This document shows, piece after piece, positions 1,036 through 31,711 of a DNA stretch of 33,169 nt (positions are counted from its first letter, which is position 1; every line of letters begins with the position of its first letter). The position numbers and the translations under genes were made by a program. Source of the stretch: a bacterium (lineage in GTDB: Bacteria > Patescibacteriota > Minisyncoccia > Phycocordibacterales > UBA5272). The notes under the pieces were generated by a model. That model did not search any database. It saw nothing but the letters and a program-made list of their open reading frames with translations, and was not told the origin of the DNA. The stretch spans positions 1 to 33,169 of the forward strand of contig JAYVAE010000001.1 of the NCBI GenBank assembly GCA_043751115.1, given 5' to 3'.

Positions 1036-1235
1036 AGTTTTAGTATATCAGTACAAGTGTTGACAACACAATGGGACATCCCTGAATTCAACATTCTAAC
1101 GCAAGACCTGTACGTTCATAGAATACCTCATATGCGAGACTGTAAAACTCCTTGTGTAAAGGATGGGTTGTTCGTAATTACAAGTCTTAGAAAGCAAGAA
1201 ATTCATTGAAATATCGCTGTTTCTAGCTACTTTGC

Positions 1236-1264
1236 TTGACTTTTACAGTGAAATGTGCTATGAT
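1236..1264 (+). promoter_or_regulatory. Candidate sigma-70 promoter for the DGR target gene
   Basis: TTGACT (1236-1241), a 17-nt spacer, then TATGAT (1259-1264) preceded by TGC (extended -10-like). It sits about 170 nt upstream of the target gene start. Confidence 0.4.
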
Positions 1265-1293
1265 ACAAGGTAGTTCTTTGATATTCTAACTTG

Positions 1294-1351
1294 CATATGG
1301 TCATAGCGAAAAGTTGCTTACAAATAAGCCATTTCTCGCTATGACCATATG
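1294..1351. promoter_or_regulatory. Perfect 16-bp inverted repeat (26-nt spacer) in the target-gene leader
   Basis: CATATGGTCATAGCGA (1294-1309) is the exact reverse complement of TCGCTATGACCATATG (1336-1351). It lies between the candidate promoter and the RBS. Function is unknown (operator or RNA stem). Confidence 0.5.
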
Positions 1352-1432
1352 GTTAATAGTTCCTCCTCGGATTAGAGGATTTCATGTCTAGCAGACATGA
1401 ATCAATCGGCTATCAGCCGGAAGGAGTATTTC

Positions 1433-2050
1433 ATGGCCAAGTACAATCTCTACGTCGAAGACGTGAGTGTCGAGGCGATTTTCAACAAGCTCGGCGGAAT
1501 GGAAGGTGCTCGTCGCTTTCTGCGTGACGAACTGACGCTTTCCGAAGTCGTCCGTTCTTGGCGCGAAGAAGATGGCATCATCCGCTTCTCGGTCACGTCC
1601 GACGGCACCTCTGGTGCCAGCTGGATCGAATGCTTGGAACACGACGGTTACAACGTCGGCAGCTACGCCAAGCAAATCCTCCTGTCTCCCGACTTCAAGC
1701 CGACCAAGGGTGTCGTAACCGAGATCGTCGTCATGAAGGGCTCGCTCTTCTCGAATGACGAACGCATCACACGAAACATCCGTGCGGAAGCAACCAAGCG
1801 GAAGTACGTCGCTCCCAACCCCGAAGTCGCCTGTCTCATCCGTGTCATGTTCACCGACAAGGAGATTGAAGACATGGGTCTCTGGGGTATCGTCACGATG
1901 CACGAGCCCATCAAGGACTCCGATGGCGATCCGAGCTTGCTCTACGCGAGCCGTGACGACAAGGGTCGCTGGCTGTACGCGTATCACGTCAACCCTGCCT
2001 TCAGGTGGTTCGATGTCAACGGGTTCGCGTTTGCCGTTCTCGCAAGTTAG
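1433..2050 (+). CDS. DGR variable (target) protein; C-terminal 42 aa encoded by the VR
   Basis: The ORF runs 1397-2050. The ATG at 1433 has a strong SD (GGAAGGAG, 1419-1426, 6-nt spacer), so 1433 is preferred. The C-terminus DSDGDPSLLYASRDDKGRWLYAYHVNPAFRWFDVNGFAFAVLAS is encoded by the VR. The gene is markedly more GC-rich than its surroundings. No signal peptide or TM segment is visible. Confidence 0.85.
   Translation: MAKYNLYVEDVSVEAIFNKLGGMEGARRFLRDELTLSEVVRSWREEDGIIRFSVTSDGTSGASWIECLEHDGYNVGSYAKQILLSPDFKPTKGVVTEIVVMKGSLFSNDERITRNIRAEATKRKYVAPNPEVACLIRVMFTDKEIEDMGLWGIVTMHEPIKDSDGDPSLLYASRDDKGRWLYAYHVNPAFRWFDVNGFAFAVLAS
1919..2045 (+). repeat. DGR variable repeat (VR)
   Basis: 127-nt match to 2425-2551 (offset 506) with 13 differences. 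Twelve fall where the TR has A (VR positions 1935, 1950, 1955, 1976, 1985, 1989, 1998, 2000, 2001, 2009, 2010, 2016). One is a synonymous T/C at 1984. The last 29 nt are identical. Confidence 0.92.
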
Positions 2051-2112
2051 AACTTAGATTTTGGTCACTTTGGTCTCAATTAGCACTTGGACCCTTTGAC
2101 CTTAGTCCTTGT

Positions 2113-2148
2113 CCCGCACGGTACTCCGTGCGGGGCTTTTTCATTTTT
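2113..2148 (+). terminator. GC-rich hairpin plus T-tract downstream of the target gene
   Basis: CCCGCACGG (2113-2121), loop TACT, CCGTGCGGG (2126-2134), followed by GCTTTTTCATTTTT. This is intrinsic-terminator geometry. It may also act as a DGR target-site hairpin. Confidence 0.6.
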
Positions 2149-2424
2149 ATATTTTCGTAATGTTACAATTATGAGTGAGAGTAGGTGAATATGTGAGTGA
2201 TCACGGTTGATCGCTACCGAAATTAGTATCCATACATTCTGAGTATCTTAGATTACGGTTTAAGGTAGAGTGGTGTATGTGCAGATTTATTTACGTCCAA
2301 GATGTGAATCTGCTGATTCAAAAATGAAGATACTTGGTATAGAGTGCTAGGGCATTGTCATGCCGAATACGATACAACCTTAAGAGCATTCAAGGGGTGG
2401 TGGAATGGAAGGCACTCTATACAA

Positions 2425-2551
2425 TCCGATGGCGATCCGAACTTGCTCTACGCGAACCGTAACGACAAGGGTCGCTGGCTGAACGCGTACAACGACAACC
2501 CTGACAACAGGTGGAACGATGACAACGGGTTCGCGTTTGCCGTTCTCGCAA
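2425..2551 (+). repeat. DGR template repeat (TR), non-coding
   Basis: Adenine-rich counterpart of the VR. It contains 32 A by hand count, many within AAC/GAC triplets in the VR reading frame (...NLLYANRNDKGRWLNAYNDNPDNRWNDDNGF...). It lies between the target gene and avd/RT. Confidence 0.92.
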
Positions 2552-2564
2552 CTATCTCATTTCT

Positions 2565-2600
2565 AAAAGCCGATACATATCGGCTTTTAGTTTTTCTTTT
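2565..2600. terminator. Bidirectional hairpin terminator after the TR and after avd
   Basis: AAAAGCCGAT (2565-2574), loop ACAT, ATCGGCTTTT (2579-2588), then T-rich TAGTTTTTCTTTT. The A-tract on the other side serves the convergent avd, whose stop is at 2599-2601. Confidence 0.55.
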
Positions 2601-2934
2601 ACTTATGCTCTCTTGTTAGTTGTCCATGCCATCCACCAAGCATTCTACCTACTTCATCAAATGGCACAGAAATTGCAATGTACTTTTTGTCATCAATTGA
2701 TTTGCTCTCCCATAGTATGAGTAGCAACACTTTTGCGGTATCCATCTTTCGTATTGCAATACGCACATACGGATGCTTCTCATCTTTAGACAAAAAGCTG
2801 GCTTGGGCTATGGCTTCTATCGTTTCAATCAGAAGTTGATCAATTTTCTGGCCAAGTGTGTATCTATGATACTTGGGGAGTATTTGGTACAGCTGTATCC
2901 ACTCCATGTAGCCACTTTTTAGCTTTTCAAGCAC
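2599..2934 (-). CDS. avd: Avd-like accessory variability determinant (four-helix-bundle, 23S rRNA-IVS protein family)
   Basis: 111-aa ORF: ...WIQLYQILPKYHRYTLGQKIDQLLIETIEAIAQA...LLLILWESKSIDDKKY...EVGRMLGGW... This matches the Avd/four-helix-bundle pattern (P-K-x-x-R/K-Y-x-L-G-x-Q/K-I ... G-x-M-L-G-G-W). The start at 2934 is GTG; an alternative ATG is at 2907. It is on the strand opposite to the TR and RT. Confidence 0.8.
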   Translation of the reverse strand: MLEKLKSGYMEWIQLYQILPKYHRYTLGQKIDQLLIETIEAIAQASFLSKDEKHPYVRIAIRKMDTAKVLLLILWESKSIDDKKYIAISVPFDEVGRMLGGWHGQLTREHK

Positions 2935-2969
2935 TGGTAGTAATTGCGGGGGGGGGTAGACTTCACAGG

Positions 2970-3962
2970 ATGAGAATTACTTTTAATCATTCATATAATG
3001 ATACCATTTCAATCGAGAATTTACTCTTGGCATGGAAGGAATTTGAGAAGGGCAAAAAGTCACGTATCGATGTGCAGATATTTGAAAGGAATCTCATGAG
3101 TAATATCTTATCACTCCATCAAGATCTCGTTTCCAAAGTCTACAAGCATGGAGCGTATTTTGCCTTCAATATCTCTGACCCAAAGCCACGAAATATTCAC
3201 AAAGCATCCGTGCGTGACAGGCTACTTCATCACGCTATTTATCGTATCCTATACCCATTTTTCGACAAGACGTTTATTGCAGACTCATACTCATGCAGAG
3301 TAAAGAAATGAACACACAGAGCTCTCAGGAGATTTGAATATTTCGTAAGAAAGGTGTCGAAGAATCATACGAAGACGTGCTGGGTGCTCAAGTGTGATAT
3401 ACGAAAGTTCTTTGCTTCAATTGATCAGAAAATACTGCTTGATATTTTAGATGGTTATATTAGTGACAAGGATATTGTGCAATTACTCGCCACCGTCATC
3501 GAGAGCTTTCACTCCACAGATGTCGGCAAAGGTCTACCACTCGGTAATCTCACCTCACAACTCTTTGTGAATATTTACATGAATGAGTTTGATCAGTTTG
3601 TGAAGCACAGGCTGAAAGCGAAACACTATATACGCTATGCAGATGATTTTGTGGTTCTTTCGACTGATAGAAATGAGCTAGAAATGCTCCGTCAAAAGGT
3701 GGGAGACTTTTTGACGACGCGACTTCATCTCTCACTTCATCCAAACAAAGTATCCATCGAGACCTTTGCTTCAGGTATAGATTTCTTGGGATGGGTGCAT
3801 TTTCCAAAACACAGAGTACTGAGGACTGCGACCAAGAGAAAAATGATTGCAAGGGTGAGTGAGAAAAACGTCACATTATATCTTGGTCTACTCTCGCATG
3901 GAAATACGCATGAGCTGAGAGAAGAATTGAAAAAGTATTTGACTAATGTGTCAGGAGCCTAA
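2970..3962 (+). CDS. DGR reverse transcriptase, one reading frame interrupted by a single in-frame TGA (3309-3311)
   Basis: The ATG at 2970 opens MRITFNHSYNDTISIENLLLAWKEFEKGKK... The motifs SYSCRVKK*THRAL, VLKCDIRKFFASIDQ, LPLGNLTSQLFVNIYMNEFD (the DGR-clade signature as I recall it) and IRYADDFVVL (YxDD) are present. The two track ORFs (2856-3311 and 3354-3962) are in the same frame. Confidence 0.85.
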
Positions 3963-4014
3963 ATAACGCATACCACGCTTAGTGGGAGGGGTTGCGCATG
4001 CTACACTATTTCTC

Positions 4015-4944
4015 ATGAAAATGCTGAAAGTATTTGTTCCTTTTCTCTTCGTCACATCATTTCTCGTTTTTTATTATTTCCATATACAAAAGTACGGCGG
4101 GGGAATGATAGATCCAGCTGGCATTATCGCAGTAGCAGAGAAAAATCTCATGCTCACCGCCTTTGGTCTCATGATGATTGTGGTGGTGCCTGTCTTTATC
4201 ATGCTTTTTGCTTTTGCTTGGAGGTATAGAGCAGGGAATAAGCATGCGAAATATAGTCCAGACTTTCATGAGAGCAAAACTCTGGAAATAATTTGGTGGA
4301 TTGTGCCTGGTTTCATTGTTTTTCTGCTCGCTATTATCACTTGGAAAAGCACTCATGAGCTTGACCCTTATAAGCCACTAGTCAGTGATAAAAAGCCCAT
4401 TACAATACAAGTTGTTGCTCTCGACTGGAAGTGGCTCTTTATTTATCCCGATGAACAAATAGCAACAGTAAACCTTCTTCAAATTCCGAAAGATGTTCCT
4501 ATAAACTTTCGCATAACAGCAGACGCCCCTATGAATAGTTTTTGGATACCACAGCTTGGCGGGCAAGTATATGCTATGGGTGGCATGACGACACAGCTTC
4601 ACCTTATGGGAAGCAAAGAGGGTGATTACAAGGGCCTTTCAGCTAATTTTAGTGGAGACGGCTTTGGCGGTATGAAATTTATTGCTCGCGTAAGCTCAGT
4701 TTCTTCATATGAGGACTGGCTTAAAGAAGTAAGAAATTCCCCTTATGCGCTCACAGAGTCTGAATACGAAATGTTGAGGAAGCCTACAAGTTATGATGGT
4801 ATATCCTACTATGCCTTTTCTCAGCCTGGACTATTTCAAAAAATTGTTGATAGGTACATGCTTCCTGAAAACTCTTTTTCTCCAGATGGGACTCAGTATA
4901 AAGTGAAGTCTCACAGGCATGATAAACATGATAAATTGGAGTAA
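4015..4944 (+). CDS. cyoA: Cytochrome bo3-type ubiquinol oxidase subunit II
   Basis: LTAFGLMMIVVVPVFIMLFAFAWRYRAGNKHAKYSPDFHESKTLEIIWW... and ...MNSFWIPQLGGQVYAMGGMTTQLHLMG...GLSANFSGDGFGGMKF closely follow the CyoA pattern. No CuA Cys/His ligands are present, so it is a quinol oxidase type. The track ORF starts at GTG 3982; ATG 4015 is preferred. Confidence 0.88.
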   Translation: MKMLKVFVPFLFVTSFLVFYYFHIQKYGGGMIDPAGIIAVAEKNLMLTAFGLMMIVVVPVFIMLFAFAWRYRAGNKHAKYSPDFHESKTLEIIWWIVPGFIVFLLAIITWKSTHELDPYKPLVSDKKPITIQVVALDWKWLFIYPDEQIATVNLLQIPKDVPINFRITADAPMNSFWIPQLGGQVYAMGGMTTQLHLMGSKEGDYKGLSANFSGDGFGGMKFIARVSSVSSYEDWLKEVRNSPYALTESEYEMLRKPTSYDGISYYAFSQPGLFQKIVDRYMLPENSFSPDGTQYKVKSHRHDKHDKLE

Positions 4945-4965
4945 TACATAGTATACTTTCACCAT

Positions 4966-6939
4966 ATGTTTGGTAAATTAACTTTAGACGCATTTCCTAA
5001 CGATGTTATCGTGATTGTGGCATCACTTCTAATGGTTGTGGTGGCGTCGCTCGTAATCGGATTACTGTTTTATTTTAAAAAATGGAAATGGCTTTGGAAT
5101 GAGTGGATAACGACAGTCGATCACAAAAAGATTGGCATCATGTACATCTTACTCTCTACCGTTATGTTTATTCGAGGTTTTACGGACGCTATGCTCATGC
5201 GTACTCAGCAGGCAGTATCTGTGGGAGAGTCGTATGGATTTTTACCACCGGACCATTATGATCAGATATTTACGGCACACGGCGTTATCATGATTTTCTT
5301 TGTGGCAATGCCGCTCATGTTTGGACTCATCAACTTTGTGCTTCCATTACAAATTGGTGCGCGTGACGTTGCCTTCCCTTTTCTCAATTCTCTTTCGTTT
5401 TGGCTTACTTTTTTTGCTGCCATGCTGGTGAACGCTTCACTTGCTATCGGAGACTTCGCAGCGACAGGGTGGCTCGCATATCCGCCACTCTCTGGCATAC
5501 AGTTTAGTCCGGGAGTGGGAGTGGATTATTATATTTGGGCGCTACAAATTGGAGGTGTAGGAACACTTCTTTCTGCCATAAACTTTTTTGTGACAGTGCT
5601 CATGATGAGAGCGCCTGGAATGACCCTCATGCGTATGCCGGTATTTACCTGGACAAGTTTTTGCTCAATGATACTGGTTATCGTTTCTTTTCCAATATTA
5701 ACTGCGACGCTCTTCATGCTGTCCCTCGATAGATATTTTGGCATGCACTTCTTCACCATGGATGGCGGAGGTAACCCAATGATGTATATAAATCTCATAT
5801 GGGCATGGGGTCATCCAGAAGTATATATACTTATGCTTCCAGCTTTTGGTATTTTTTCAGAAATAGTTTCAACGTTTGCAAAGAAGAGGCTTTTTGGTTA
5901 CACAACGATGATATACGCCACGATTGCAATAACAGTGCTCTCTTTCCTTGTTTGGGTGCATCACTTCTTTACCATGGGATCAGGGGCGAGCGTGAATGCC
6001 TTCTTCGGTATTATGACAATGATTATCGCAATACCGACTGGAGTAAAGATATTTAACTGGCTCTTTACTATGTATAGAGGGCGTATTACTTTTGCGAGCC
6101 CCATGCTGTGGATGATCGGTTTTATCGCGACTTTTACTTTTGGTGGTATGACGGGAGTACTCCTGTCGCTTCCTGCTGTCGACTTTCAATTACATAATAG
6201 TTTATTTCTTGTCGCTCATTTCCATAATACGATTATTGGAGGAGTCCTCTTTGGATACTTTGCTGGGGTCGCTTATTGGTTTCCGAAGATATTTGGTTTT
6301 TCTCTTAACGAAAAGTTGGGGAAGCTTGCATTTTGGCACTGGATACTTGGGTTTTTTGTTGCGTTCACACCGCTTTACATACTTGGACTTCTCGGCATGA
6401 CACGAAGGCTTCAGCATATAGAAGGCGGAAATGGTTGGCAGACATTACTGATTATCTCGCTTTGTGGGGCTGTCATTATCGGCATCGGTATAGTGATACA
6501 GTTAGTACAGATAGTCGTGAGCTTTCTCCAAAGAAAAAAGAATCTGGACACAACGGGCGATCCATGGGATGGAAGGAATCTTGAGTGGTCAACATCTTCT
6601 CCTCCACCCCATTATAACTTTGCTCATATTCCTACTGTTTATGGACGTCAAGCATTTTGGGATATGAAATATGGTAATGAGTATCAAAACCTCCACCACC
6701 ACTTTGAAGATATAACAATGCCAAAAAATACTCCAGCAGGCTTCTTCATCGCAGGACTTAGCTTTGTACTCGGCTTTTCACTCGTGTGGCATATATGGTG
6801 GCTTGTCGTCATATCGTTTCTTGCAATACTCTTTGTTGTCATAATGCGCTCTTTCGAAGAAGATACTGAGTATATAATTCCGAAAGAAACTATTGCACTT
6901 CATGAGGCAAGTCGGCATCATTATCTTAAAGCACTATGA
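4966..6939 (+). CDS. cyoB: Cytochrome bo3-type ubiquinol oxidase subunit I (heme-copper oxidase)
   Basis: 657-aa polytopic protein with hallmark heme-copper motifs ([24 protein letters not shown]...). Its stop overlaps the cyoC start (ATGA). Confidence 0.93.
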
Positions 6940-29488: not shown

Positions 29489-29663
29489 GTGTTTTAAAGT
29501 ATGGCAAAAAATAATCTTTTTGTGAAGTGGGTATCTTGAATAACAGCTACTTTTGTGGTACTATTTTGAAGTTTAGTTATGTTCACGGCTCACTATTGTA
29601 ATATAGTTATATCTTCTCCCAAATTTAACTAATTACGAATAACTATTAACGTATAACTAGTCT

Positions 29664-29737
29664 TGGGGAATCGTCTAATGGTAGGACACATCCCTCTGGA
29701 GGATGGTATTGGGGTTCGAGTCCCTGTTCCCCAGCCA
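29664..29737 (+). tRNA. tRNA-Gln (anticodon CUG), CCA encoded
   Basis: Hand-folded cloverleaf. The acceptor TGGGGAA pairs with TTCCCCA, and the D arm CGTC pairs with GGAC. The anticodon stem CATCC/GGATG carries loop CT-CTG-GA. The T arm is TGGGG-TTCGAGT-CCCTG, the discriminator is G, and CCA follows. Confidence 0.85.
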
Positions 29738-29742
29738 AGTTT

Positions 29743-29868
29743 CAGAATTCGTTTTTTCGCCAAAATTCGGAGCGTCGCAAAGCGACGCGACGGGGGTTTC
29801 CGCCAGAATTCGCCAAGGGTTTTTGAAATCCAAAAGAAGCGAGCGGGACGCGAGACGGGGGTTCGAGC
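29743..29868 (+). repeat. Two degenerate tandem units (about 61-65 nt) next to the tRNA 3' end, each ending in a T-arm-like GACGGGGGTT motif
   Basis: CAGAATTCG starts each unit (29743 and 29804). ACGCGA(G)ACGGGGGTT recurs near each unit end. The second reads GGGGGTTCGAGCC, like a tRNA T arm. The units could be decayed tRNA or att fragments. Confidence 0.45.
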
Positions 29869-29971
29869 CAATCTTTTTAAGAAAATCTCTTTTAGCTTCG
29901 AGATTTTCTTCGGAAGCGATAATTAAGGCTTGGTTACTGTCTAAAATGAATTGTTTAGAAAATAATTATAA

Positions 29972-30459: not shown

Positions 30460-31647
30460 CTAGCGATCGGCGCCGGAATTTGCTAAACACGACAGGAGTG
30501 CAGGTGTCTCGTTCCAACCACATTGCCCGCTACTTTGTCGTTTGCATGTAGCCGTTGCGTAACAGGCGTACTCGGGACGATATTCGCAGTTTGCGATGAG
30601 ATCCGGCTCGTCAGGCTCGTCAGTACAGAGTTGACCCGAACAACCACTTGGGCGGCAAGCCCCCGCTTTGGGGGGAGCAGGGACAGTAATGGGCGGTTCT
30701 TCAGTAACTGACAAGGCTTTGGTTACACTAAATGTAAACCTGTAATCTTGATCAGAAATAGCTTGTTTGGAAGACGACTGCGGACTGACTGTAGTCAAAG
30801 CGACCTTTCGTCCAAAGGCTTCCACCCCCTCAATTGAAGATATCTCAAGAACTTTTGCAGCACCGTCTTCAACTACCTCGATTATAAGTCTCACCTGTCC
30901 AGCTTGAATACACTGCACGTCAGCCGGACAGCGACTATCTTCTTCAATACTAAGCGGACGAATCAAAACGCCAGAAAATTCACCAACCGCTCTGAGAGCC
31001 ACTCCGCCAGCGTCAGGTACTGGTGTATTAGGCGTCACTGTCGTAAATTTGCGAGCGGCTAGATTAAATTTCAAAACCAAACTCTTACCCACCGATGGTG
31101 TTACAGCAAAAGAATCTCCCGCGGCTCGATCAACGTAATTGACCACAATCGTTCCATTCGCGCCGGCCGTAATTGACTGCGGCGCAATCCGATCACCTAC
31201 AAACACAGCCTCACTACCGACGATTCCGGTCTCGGTTGTAAGTGCGGCTACCACATAGAAGAAGGTAGCACTGCCGCCGGTTTCCTGCGTGAGGAAAAAT
31301 ACTTGGTCGGCTCGTCCATCAGCGTCGACATCAACACTCTGTTCGTTACCGAAGTAGTCGGTCATACCGCTAGCACTTTGGGCTTCACCATTTACGAGTC
31401 GAACTTTTTCACCTTCTATGGTGTATTCCGCATTTTTGGCCGATTGACTCGTCGTGGCTGGAGGAATAGGTTCAATTACCACAGTGCCAAGGCCATCTTG
31501 TTTCAACATATAATTCACTACAGTCGGTACCCAGAATTTCTGCGTAGCCAATAGACCGATCCCCACCATGATTAAAAATAGTAAAACGGCCTGAATAATG
31601 CGCAAGGTTGGTTTGGACAATGACCAAGCATTTGATGGTACATTCAT
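30460..31647 (-). CDS. Membrane-anchored secreted protein with C-terminal eight-cysteine-cluster domain
   Basis: 395-aa ORF with an N-terminal TM anchor (IIQAVLLFLIMVGIGLLA). The C-terminus CRPSGCSGQLCTDEPDEPDLIANCEYRPEYACYATATCKRQSSGQCGWNETPALLSC contains exactly 8 Cys. The gene is GC-rich relative to the window. Confidence 0.75.
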   Translation of the reverse strand: MNVPSNAWSLSKPTLRIIQAVLLFLIMVGIGLLATQKFWVPTVVNYMLKQDGLGTVVIEPIPPATTSQSAKNAEYTIEGEKVRLVNGEAQSASGMTDYFGNEQSVDVDADGRADQVFFLTQETGGSATFFYVVAALTTETGIVGSEAVFVGDRIAPQSITAGANGTIVVNYVDRAAGDSFAVTPSVGKSLVLKFNLAARKFTTVTPNTPVPDAGGVALRAVGEFSGVLIRPLSIEEDSRCPADVQCIQAGQVRLIIEVVEDGAAKVLEISSIEGVEAFGRKVALTTVSPQSSSKQAISDQDYRFTFSVTKALSVTEEPPITVPAPPKAGACRPSGCSGQLCTDEPDEPDLIANCEYRPEYACYATATCKRQSSGQCGWNETPALLSCLANSGADR

Positions 31648-31711
31648 AAATTAAATTATACCACAAAACACAGCCTCCCTTGATTCAAACCCGTTACCAA
31701 GTATATAAGCA

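Follow-up and report, generated by a model that had tools for sequence, protein, structure and literature searches.

A compact diversity-generating retroelement of Patescibacteria with a structured template RNA and a candidate phase-variation switch in avd, probably inactive in this genome

Introduction

Contig JAYVAE010000001.1 (assembly GCA_043751115.1; Patescibacteriota, UBA5272) carries close to its first position two near-identical segments which differ almost exclusively where one of them has an adenine. The question raised by this locus is whether these segments are the variable repeat (VR) and the template repeat (TR) of a diversity-generating retroelement (DGR), what else such an element comprises and whether it is still at work. 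No natural machinery other than DGRs is known to carry out targeted hypermutation of proteins in prokaryotes. DGRs are particularly frequent in the ultra-small, uncultivated Patescibacteria, where their targets and their regulation are poorly understood. All coordinates refer to the window, that is, the whole stretch of 33,169 nucleotides (33 kb) which was analysed, and labels such as L001, L002, L003 and L108 stand for related loci or contigs.

The answer put forward here with high confidence is that the region of approximately 1231-3965 holds a complete, compact DGR cassette of a Patescibacteria-restricted lineage, an explanation which takes in a predicted structured RNA, a candidate switch and a probable off state. 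The VR/TR pair alone is one more member of a known Patescibacteria DGR lineage. Four further features, namely the 5' domain of the template RNA, the repeat in avd, the excess of G+C at synonymous sites of the target gene and the structured 5' untranslated region (UTR) of the target, were apparently not described in the literature searched; they are common to the related loci examined, the first three are statistically solid at the level of sequence, and putative functions are proposed for them below.

Several relatives are used throughout. L001 and L002 are contigs from other samples, whose cassette is 98.7% identical to that of the window over 1220-3410 (approximately 2.2 kb), and L003 is a relative with an intact reverse transcriptase (RT), 87% identical to the RT of the window. 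A metagenome scan for further copies of the exact cassette clade provided one additional contig, L108.

Results

The repeat pair and its adenine-directed differences

In a repeat search, VR and TR (coordinates of all features in Table 1) formed an ungapped direct repeat of 127 nt, spaced by 506 nt and 90% identical. When compared base by base, the two copies differ at 13 positions, 12 of which are TR adenines (three A to G, seven A to T and two A to C), while the sole non-adenine mismatch, TR C2490 against VR T1984, is synonymous (TAC/TAT) and falls at a site where the sister cassette of L001/L002 carries the TR base. If 13 mismatches are drawn as a hypergeometric sample from 127 nt of which 32 are adenines, 12 or more of them would hit TR adenines with a probability of 1.1e-7. 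These adenines are concentrated in AAC and GAC codons of the VR frame. VR encodes the C-terminal 42 residues of the target protein, and ten residues differ in the frame of the open reading frame (ORF) 1397/1433-2050 (N to S, S, D, Y, H, F, F; D to V, A, V). An earlier note on this DNA, made from its letters alone, had described the pair with its 12 of 13 differences at the 32 TR adenines, the substitution classes, the synonymous C2490/T1984 difference, the ten changes of N or D residues and an AAC-rich, N/D-rich template, and re-alignment agrees with it in every specific; the mismatches are not spread over the four bases, a point on which the note had proposed a permutation test.

The adenine bias is a property of the family. 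Among 40 related loci bearing a TR, 632 of the 691 VR/TR mismatches (91%) fall at TR adenines, and protein alignment shows more distant target homologues varying at exactly the AAC/GAC codons of TR. Furthermore, VR alleles in related genomes, which the earlier note had also suggested comparing, reveal turnover. TR and the RNA leader upstream of it are identical in the window and L001/L002, and so is the body of avd between the window and the sister cassette, whereas VR shows 19 differences, of which 18 lie at TR adenines; the other ~2,060 nt contain only 5 substitutions and a change in the length of a G tract. This amounts to a roughly 60-fold excess of change in VR over the rest of the cassette between sister copies. 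VR turns over between near-identical cassettes, and the lineage has been active recently.

An ordinary duplication of the 3' end of a gene, followed by normal divergence with an adenine bias due to chance, would account for the existence of a direct repeat and for nothing beyond it. Practically no weight can be given to this explanation in view of the probability calculated here, of the 91% of 691 mismatches at TR adenines in the 40 related pairs, of the RT and avd genes adjoining the repeat pair, and of the roughly 60-fold higher frequency of substitutions which sister copies show in VR relative to the remaining cassette. A DGR is, by contrast, what these observations describe.

The 3' end of the pair requires a more careful reading. 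The last 29 nt are identical between the copies (2017-2045 and 2523-2551), with divergence directly after CGCAA, as the earlier note had stated, and it had likened this end to a homing region of the initiation of mutagenic homing (IMH) type. The comparison agrees as regards the identity; nevertheless, 24 of the 29 nt (2020-2043) hold no adenine, and therefore the identity of the 3' end is uninformative in a single VR/TR pair. Moreover, A2018, which lies inside the identical 29-mer, is substituted in the sister cassette L001. It is the substitution profile of 37 VR/TR pairs which lends support to an IMH-like end: adenines 26-127 nt from the 3' end are substituted in approximately 50% of cases and non-adenines almost never, the terminal adenines are never substituted (0/46 at positions 1-2 from the end and 0/20 at positions 4-5), and positions 11-25 are essentially free of adenine. 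Unsubstituted terminal adenines together with an adenine-free block suggest that information transfer stops inside the GC-rich, adenine-free block, as it does at an IMH. The window pair lacks a visible counterpart of the mismatches between IMH and IMH* in the DGR of the Bordetella phage BPP-1, VR and TR being identical up to the point of complete divergence. When the last 25 nt of TR were searched throughout the window with up to 3 mismatches, only VR and TR were matched and no second target site was found.

Reverse transcriptase and Avd

Two genes adjoin the repeat pair. The translation of the first contains the DGR-type motif 4 of reverse transcriptases ([I/L]GxxxSQ) as LGNLTSQ and the catalytic YxDD as YADD. 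The second lies on the opposite strand, and its product, taken from the ORF 2599-2934, matches the Pfam family PF22296 (bAvd, E=3.8e-9) and the NCBIfam family NF033474 (DivGenRetAVD, E=8.2e-14). The body of Avd is an intact ORF in all the loci examined and is 47-100% identical to that of the window (51-71% outside the clade of the window).

A template RNA with a structured 5' domain

The distance between the target gene and TR is near-constant among the related loci, the spacer being mostly 320-380 nt long and TR lying approximately 300-450 nt downstream of the target in 40 loci. The last ~250 nt of this spacer (2175-2424) show a nucleotide conservation far above that of the proteins and no codon periodicity. 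On the alignment of related loci, RNAalifold gave five helices in which 48 of 76 pairs are compensatory. The pairs were compared with slid-partner controls and with 500 shuffles: counting the leader helices and a long-range duplex, 95.3% of the cells are paired (40-50% in the slid controls), 47 of 63 pairs are changed on both sides (16-22 slid, 26.7 +/- 2.6 shuffled) and the covariation score is 0.456 (0.10-0.13 in controls), and none of the 500 shuffles attained the observed values of pairing, double change or covariation. The presence of conserved G-U pairs indicates that the plus strand is the functional one. The predicted secondary structure of the 5' domain is strongly supported by covariation; support for the duplex between the leader (2322-2330) and the tail behind TR (2554-2562) is moderate, 88% of its cells being paired and 6 of its 9 pairs changed on both sides.

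Downstream of TR, every related locus shows a hairpin and behind it UUUUGUUUU; the stem sequences vary from one locus to the next, and this terminator lies approximately 45-55 nt after TR in all of them. A profile built from the leader matched the window once (E=7e-52, from 2180) and every TR-bearing locus, including both cassettes of L056. In a scan of the window cassette and three relatives against Rfam 15 at E<=1, no match was obtained for the leader, for the target 5' UTR or for the rest of the cassette, nor for the RT-associated motifs of Weinberg et al., RT-10 included. TR is thus predicted to be embedded in a discrete RNA of ~415 nt with its own promoter and terminator, the transcript running from about 2177 to 2595.

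The conserved 245 nt might, alternatively, act as DNA (a promoter, a regulator or a recombination site) or encode a small protein. Some promoter must indeed lie within the region, and an ORF of 91 aa (2344-2619), predicted by one gene caller, spans the 3' part of the leader together with TR. Nevertheless, the conservation lacks a 3-nt periodicity, the compensatory double changes (47 of 63 pairs) are far above the shuffled and slid controls, the conserved G-U pairs would be A-C mismatches on the other strand and are meaningless for duplex DNA, and the block opens 7-10 nt behind a conserved -10 box and runs as far as an intrinsic terminator. A role as DNA or as a coding sequence is hence considered highly improbable, and a structured RNA the reading to be preferred.

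A repeat inside the coding sequence of avd

Near its 5' end, avd carries a tract of G (C on the avd strand), and at the same position most relatives have a poly-G of 8-13 nt, the others having (TTGG)n, (TTGA)n or (GGCT)n. Of the 26 loci surveyed, 25 have retained a repeat there, and the exception, L025, is in frame. Such tracts are otherwise rare: the avd tract is the only G/C run of at least 7 nt in the 33-kb window, and of the 25 G/C runs of at least 8 nt which occur in the related loci (786 kb), 22 are located where avd begins. Its length is polymorphic, with 9, 9, 10, 10, 11, 12 and 13 nt in the clade of the window. In fact, the window has 9 G, L002 has 10 and L001 has 11; across 2,897 nt, which take in VR, L084 and L085 differ in nothing but the tract (13 against 12 G); and L067 and L070 have 8 against 9. 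In L108, an independent relative, the tract again has 9 G, and five assemblies of another cassette show no change in a (TTGA)10 tract.

The position of the tract with respect to the reading frame is also clear. The avd frame is open through the repeat, poly-C being read as PPP and (CCAA)n as TNQP, with an ATG usually some 34-37 nt beyond it, and most loci have no ATG within the first 40 codons after the repeat. A start at GTG 2934-2932, which would leave the repeat intergenic, was considered and rejected: the homologous codon is GTA or GTT in most loci, most loci have no start behind the repeat, and this codon is a conserved internal Val preceded by the motif [LI]LP. The open frame, the absence of a downstream start and the conservation of [LI]LP and of the internal Val place the repeat inside the avd coding sequence. 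Among the 26 loci, 10 have avd in frame, 10 need the loss of one nucleotide and 6 the gain of one; because frames so close to uniform are uninformative, the coding-frame argument draws on the missing alternative start and on the intact body of Avd.

Taken together, these data make the repeat a probable on/off phase-variation switch, which would work reversibly, and no report of a repeat-controlled DGR machinery was found in the literature searched. Slippage of the RNA polymerase or of the ribosome could make the off state leaky. A different account holds that the repeat is not regulatory, being either a neutral or mutationally arisen homopolymer or a spacer in the divergent promoter region of avd and RT, with the frameshifted copies as decaying pseudogenes. 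It would fit the near-uniform frames (10/10/6), which are those of random frames, the degraded RTs and truncated cassettes that occur in the family, and the lack of a clear Shine-Dalgarno sequence, as read from the letters, before the upstream ATG of avd. It fails to explain, however, why 25 of 26 loci have preserved a repeat next to an unbroken ORF for the Avd body, why 22 of 25 long G/C runs in 786 kb lie at avd starts, and why most loci lack a start downstream of the repeat while the [LI]LP-V motif is maintained at the protein level, its codons varying synonymously. Moreover, (TTGA)n is open on the avd strand only, the repeat-free L025 is in frame, and the tract is the sole difference between two assemblies of 2.9 kb (L084/L085). 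A repeat devoid of regulatory function is therefore judged improbable, and the candidate switch is retained.

State of the element in this genome

With the 9 G present in the window, the avd product translated from the upstream ATG runs out of frame and ends after 23 codons, while one more G would give an Avd of 130 aa, identical to that of L002. In addition, the RT gene has a TGA codon in place of an invariant Gly. The codon at 3309 is GGA in L001 and L002 and encodes Gly in L003, L108 and all the other relatives examined. The long genes of the window (902 and 1,019 codons) are without in-frame TGA, which indicates that TGA is a genuine stop in this genome; for the same reason, and as the sister cassette has GGA there, the reading of TGA as Gly (code 25, as in Gracilibacteria/SR1) was discarded. 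The window consequently has no intact, expressible RT gene, a finding which bears on present activity and not on the identity of the element.

With avd out of frame and a nonsense codon in RT, the element is probably inactive in this genome, and the 12 substitutions at adenine sites of VR are most likely the frozen record of earlier retrohoming. VR has a single non-adenine difference, at a site where the sister has the TR base. The most economical reading of the sequences is that of a recently active DGR which would now be silent, avd being switched reversibly and RT disabled by a point mutation.

The opposite view, that the DGR is active here, would require the TGA and the 9 G to be artefacts, minority alleles fixed in the consensus, or lesions bypassed by read-through or slippage. 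Sequencing errors and polymerase slippage both readily occur at homopolymers of 9-13 nt. In addition, the single non-adenine VR/TR difference points to very recent homing, TR, the RNA leader and the body of avd are identical to those of the sister cassette, and the ORF of the avd body is intact. Against this, the TGA is a clean G-to-T change at an invariant Gly and not a homopolymer error, TGA is used as a stop all through the window, a single copy combines two independent lesions, and the independent relative L108 likewise has 9 G. Present activity is thus unlikely, while keeping a real share of the probability, and a recently silenced element is the preferred interpretation.

Table 1. Position and description of the features of the DGR cassette in the window
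Feature	Position	Strand	Description
Target promoter	1236-1264	+	sigma-70-like TTGACT-17-TATGAT with TG, at left edge of conserved cassette; promoter scan, 10/12 matches
Long hairpin in target 5' UTR	1294-1351	+	27-nt arms; inverted repeat
Target gene	1433-2050	+	205 aa from ATG 1433; AGGAG 7 nt upstream; upstream ATG 1397 gives 217 aa
VR	1919-2045	+	19 differences from VR of sister cassette with identical TR
Adenine-free GC-rich 3' segment of VR	2020-2043 (TR counterpart 2526-2549)	+	putative IMH-like 3' boundary of information transfer; never-substituted terminal AA comes next; read from sequence and family profile
Intrinsic terminator of target	2111-2146	+	GC-rich hairpin, 11 bp, 4-nt loop, and T-run; terminator scan
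-10 box of TR RNA	2164-2169	+	TACAAT; aligns with conserved TATAAT in relatives, 7-10 nt before first conserved RNA nucleotide
Structured 5' domain of TR RNA	2177-2422	+	P1 2177-2200/2207-2224
P2	2231-2238/2272-2279	+	inner helix 2244-2254/2257-2267; TR RNA 5' domain
Variable insert	2286-2318	+	TR RNA 5' domain
Single-stranded segment	2319-2336	+	A-rich + GAAGAUACUUGG; TR RNA 5' domain
P3	2337-2348/2411-2422	+	encloses P4 2352-2355/2360-2363 and P5 2377-2385/2390-2398
TR	2425-2551	+	identical in window, L001 and L002
Conserved 3' tail	2552-2562	+	consensus CUCUCUUCAUUU; 2554-2562 pair with leader 2322-2330 (AAAUGAAGA), the loop holding P3-P5 and TR
Intrinsic terminator of TR RNA	2563-2600	+	12-bp hairpin, 4-nt loop (stem-loop 2563-2590), and U-run; terminator scan
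avd	2599-2990	-	ATG 2990-2988 (antisense to RT codon His7), through repeat, stop 2601-2599
Simple-sequence repeat in avd 5' coding region	2948-2956		poly-G (poly-C on avd strand), 9 G here; candidate switch
DGR reverse transcriptase	2970-3962	+	330 codons, LGNLTSQ and YADD; RVT_1 E=3e-24; interrupted by in-frame stop
TGA nonsense codon	3309-3311	+	RT codon 114, in place of invariant Gly of KGTH(R/K)A; G to T at 3309

The target gene, its leader and its codon composition

The target has 641 homologues, all unnamed or 'hypothetical', those with a named source coming from Patescibacteria, and for most of them MAK/MSK marks the start. Read by eye, the target sequence shows neither a signal peptide nor a hydrophobic segment, and the protein is apparently cytoplasmic. 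The target matched no Pfam or NCBIfam family, a sequence profile search of PDB gave no match, and an exact-sequence look-up of the protein of the window returned no record. An AlphaFold2 model built from 58 homologues (predicted local distance difference test, pLDDT, 84.3; predicted template modelling score, pTM, 0.74) found no match at E<0.1 with Foldseek in PDB and BFVD. C-type-lectin chains recur among the top insignificant matches (best E=0.12, probability 0.14), by which this fold is neither confirmed nor excluded.

The 5' UTR of the target is structured as well. The long hairpin is followed by smaller ones (~1364-1379, 1382-1402 and 1408-1420) before the Shine-Dalgarno sequence and the ATG, and this multi-hairpin leader (1271-1432 in the window) folds in nearly all related loci. 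The inner stem of the long hairpin has compensatory pairs, e.g. GC:14/CG:10/UA:2, and its outer stem, GGUCAUAGC/GCUAUGACC, is invariant. The leader could be a regulatory RNA or a palindromic operator. At the other end of the gene, the hairpin which acts as the predicted terminator could also assist homing, by analogy with the hairpin/cruciform downstream of the BPP-1 VR.

In all 83 related loci surveyed, the G+C content of the target is above that of its flanks, by 14 points on average. This excess sits at synonymous sites, with a G+C content at third codon positions (GC3) of 0.69 for the target as against 0.44 for RT and 0.43 for avd. In the window, the target outside VR (1433-1918) has a GC3 of 0.73 and a frequency of C at third positions (C3) of 0.50, as compared with 0.36-0.43 and 0.14-0.20 in the neighbouring genes. 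Also, the GC3 of the target is hardly correlated with the G+C content of the host (r=0.14; RT r=0.63, avd r=0.55), and at conserved four-fold sites of the target the third base is C at a frequency of 0.48-0.50 and A at 0.08-0.10, the RT in the same loci being flat. Although A is the most depleted base at these four-fold sites, adenine avoidance was discarded as the cause of this excess, as T is depleted too and no mechanism ties the mutagenesis of adenines to positions outside VR.

Limits, mobility and remnants of the cassette

The cassette is bounded at ~1230, by the -35 box of the target promoter, and at ~3930-3965, near the stop codon of RT. Homology to L001/L002 and L003 begins at ~1220-1236, and the upstream flanks are unrelated. 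Near-identical cassettes with unrelated flanking genes are thus seen in the window, in L001/L002 and in L003 (flanks L001:1-612; L003:1-3405 and 6097-6396). Since the flanks are unrelated among these three genomes, it would seem that the whole 2.7-kb cassette is mobile or rearranged in one piece.

Other arrangements were observed among the relatives. L056 (4321-5700 and 6690-8431) has two such cassettes side by side, and in L014 (2984-4715) the RNA leader, avd and RT of a cassette lie upstream of a second target paralogue. Approximately half of the target homologues are orphans without an adjacent DGR. Five of them (L004, L027, L046, L076 and L078) keep a truncated TR-RNA leader downstream of the target, which indicates that these orphans derive from complete cassettes that lost the retroelement part. 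A further orphan target, P0037 (L088-L097), has no DGR nearby and lies between a gene for a YchF-type GTPase and a DUF5671 gene. Its protein sequence recurs unchanged on 15 contigs of many samples and is the sole entry in its 90% cluster; this exact-sequence look-up is only suggestive of a VR that no longer varies.

Genomic context

The rest of the window is ordinary chromosome, with genes for an SPFH protein, cyoA/B, uvrA, uvrC, a class I ribonucleotide reductase, ftsX, a PIF1 helicase and one tRNA, and the context of the cassette, judged from these genes, is cellular rather than phage. The only match at the gathering level of Rfam in the window is the tRNA at 29664-29734. The segment which holds it (29663-29961, 299 nt) is 91% identical to L026:542-840, a Candidatus Nomurabacteria contig, the similarity extending ~230 nt beyond the tRNA. 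Directly downstream of the DGR lies an operon for a cytochrome bo3-type ubiquinol oxidase (cyoA, cyoB; 3982-6939). Patescibacteria are mostly devoid of respiratory chains, and such an operon is noteworthy if the host belongs to this group. A second GC-rich stretch is found at 30460-31650 (0.49-0.51, as against 0.41 for the window), which has a minus-strand ORF of 397 aa and overlapping plus-strand ORFs; the 397-aa ORF has no Pfam match at E<=1e-5, and the stretch is unlike the 3' end of TR.

Discussion

Proposed mechanism and its weight

In the mechanism proposed, the dedicated promoter would yield the ~415-nt non-coding RNA, made up of the 5' domain (245 nt), TR, the tail and the hairpin with its U-run, and the short tail would pair back onto the 5' domain. 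The latter would dock RT and Avd and position the primer. Both proteins, encoded on opposite strands, would copy TR into complementary DNA (cDNA), misincorporating opposite adenines, and the cDNA would then replace VR at the C-terminus of the 205-aa target, the adenine-free segment acting as a fixed 3' anchor. Translation of Avd would have to cross the hypermutable repeat, so that Avd, and hence mutagenesis, would be switched on or off whenever a unit (one G where the tract is poly-G) is added or lost.

A number of points weigh against this interpretation. NCBIfam has no model for a DGR-type RT, and the best RT match is to a group II intron RT with 144.7 bits for a cut-off of 300; the Avd scores are likewise below the curated cut-offs (37.4 as against 40 bits for the Pfam family and 51.8 as against 80 bits for the NCBIfam one). 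The C-type-lectin fold expected for the VR domain could not be confirmed in the predicted model. The TGA and the 9-G state could reflect a mixed population merged into one consensus by assembly, and long homopolymers are liable to errors of length when short reads are assembled. Finally, the 10 loci on and 16 off match the prediction of a switch but equally that of random frames, and are not used as evidence.

A wider proposal can be made for the family as a whole, namely that the avd repeat stochastically toggles the mutator in subpopulations, that the template RNA is autonomous, with docking and priming located in its 5' domain, and that the C-enrichment of the target and its 5' UTR are further adaptations. 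As a package this is tentative, being slightly less likely to hold in full than to fail in one of its parts. If it is true, a contingency locus controls a diversity generator by means of a slippage-prone repeat within the first ~20 codons of avd, and the enrichment of the target in G+C (mainly C) and its 5' UTR would serve, for example, the stability of the mRNA or the control of expression. A plausible genetic switch on a mutator bears on how cells limit the cost of hypermutation. Also, the target family, widespread, well defined and of unusual codon composition, is a good candidate for structural and functional work.

Comparison with known systems

The order target(+)-TR(+)-avd(-)-RT(+) is found here and in the 25 related loci where Avd and RT could be scored, the named relatives being metagenome-assembled or single-amplified genomes of Parcubacteria, Uhrbacteria, Vogelbacteria, Niyogibacteria and similar groups. 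Among the DGRs of the Candidate Phyla Radiation (CPR), architecture B3 represents 90% (Wu et al. 2018, PMC5758913), and clade 2 is made up of Patescibacteria-restricted, cell-encoded DGRs whose targets have no recognisable domains (Roux et al. 2021, PMC8144416). The window element shares with these clade 2/B3 DGRs its chromosomal location, a target without transmembrane or conserved domain, a VR class of unknown fold and an inverted avd, in an order and orientation unlike those of BPP-1. Nothing in the element itself sets it apart from them, and it is on this ground a member of the CPR lineage.

The msr-msd of retrons is a compact, structured non-coding RNA with a template and elements recognised by a dedicated RT. 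The TR RNA resembles it in being a compact structured RNA which carries a template and in having a dedicated RT, while there is no sequence or Rfam similarity between them. Moreover, the TR RNA of the window would have its own promoter and terminator, whereas the retron RT is on the transcript of the RNA; the expected product is an integrated cDNA and not multicopy single-stranded DNA (msDNA), and the template encodes part of a protein.

As regards the switch, the contingency loci of Neisseria, Haemophilus and Campylobacter, whose phase varies by slipped-strand mispairing (e.g. PMC3315296, PMC4965091), likewise have a homopolymeric G/C tract (8-13 nt) or tetranucleotide units close to where the coding sequence begins, frame shifts by one unit and tract lengths which differ between otherwise identical sequences. 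Those known mostly control surface structures or restriction-modification systems. Here, in contrast, the gene under putative control is that of an accessory protein of a targeted hypermutation machine, and the variation is seen between assemblies of uncultivated Patescibacteria.

With BPP-1 (mtd-avd-TR-brt) the window element has in common the adenine-specific transfer from TR to VR, the C-terminal position of VR in the target, a 3' end which is GC-rich and fixed, and Avd together with RT. A tetraloop stem-loop just 3' of TR is present in both, and by analogy that of the window (2563-2590) would occupy the position of the Avd-binding element. The duplex 2322-2330/2554-2562 resembles the 'cPRT Stop' duplex of BPP-1, but its upstream strand lies ~95 nt before TR and not adjacent to it. 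In contrast with BPP-1, avd is on the opposite strand and so cannot form part of the TR RNA, no match to Rfam RT-10 is found in the window and the target is not a phage tail fibre. In the BPP-1 RNA, ~20 nt of avd upstream of TR and a 140-nt spacer (Sp) downstream of it are essential, the latter holding the priming adenosine and RT-binding elements (Handa et al. 2024, bioRxiv 10.1101/2023.10.23.563531). The predicted RNA of the window, on the other hand, ends ~45-55 nt after TR, without a 140-nt 3' spacer, and its large structure lies 5' of TR. The survey of other DGRs in the same work covered only 40 nt upstream and 100 nt downstream of TR (Handa et al. 2024, bioRxiv 10.1101/2023.10.23.563531), so that a 5' domain of this kind would have been missed. 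With a layout that differs from that of the sole DGR RNA of known structure, the TR RNA described here offers a test of the generality of the BPP-1 priming model.

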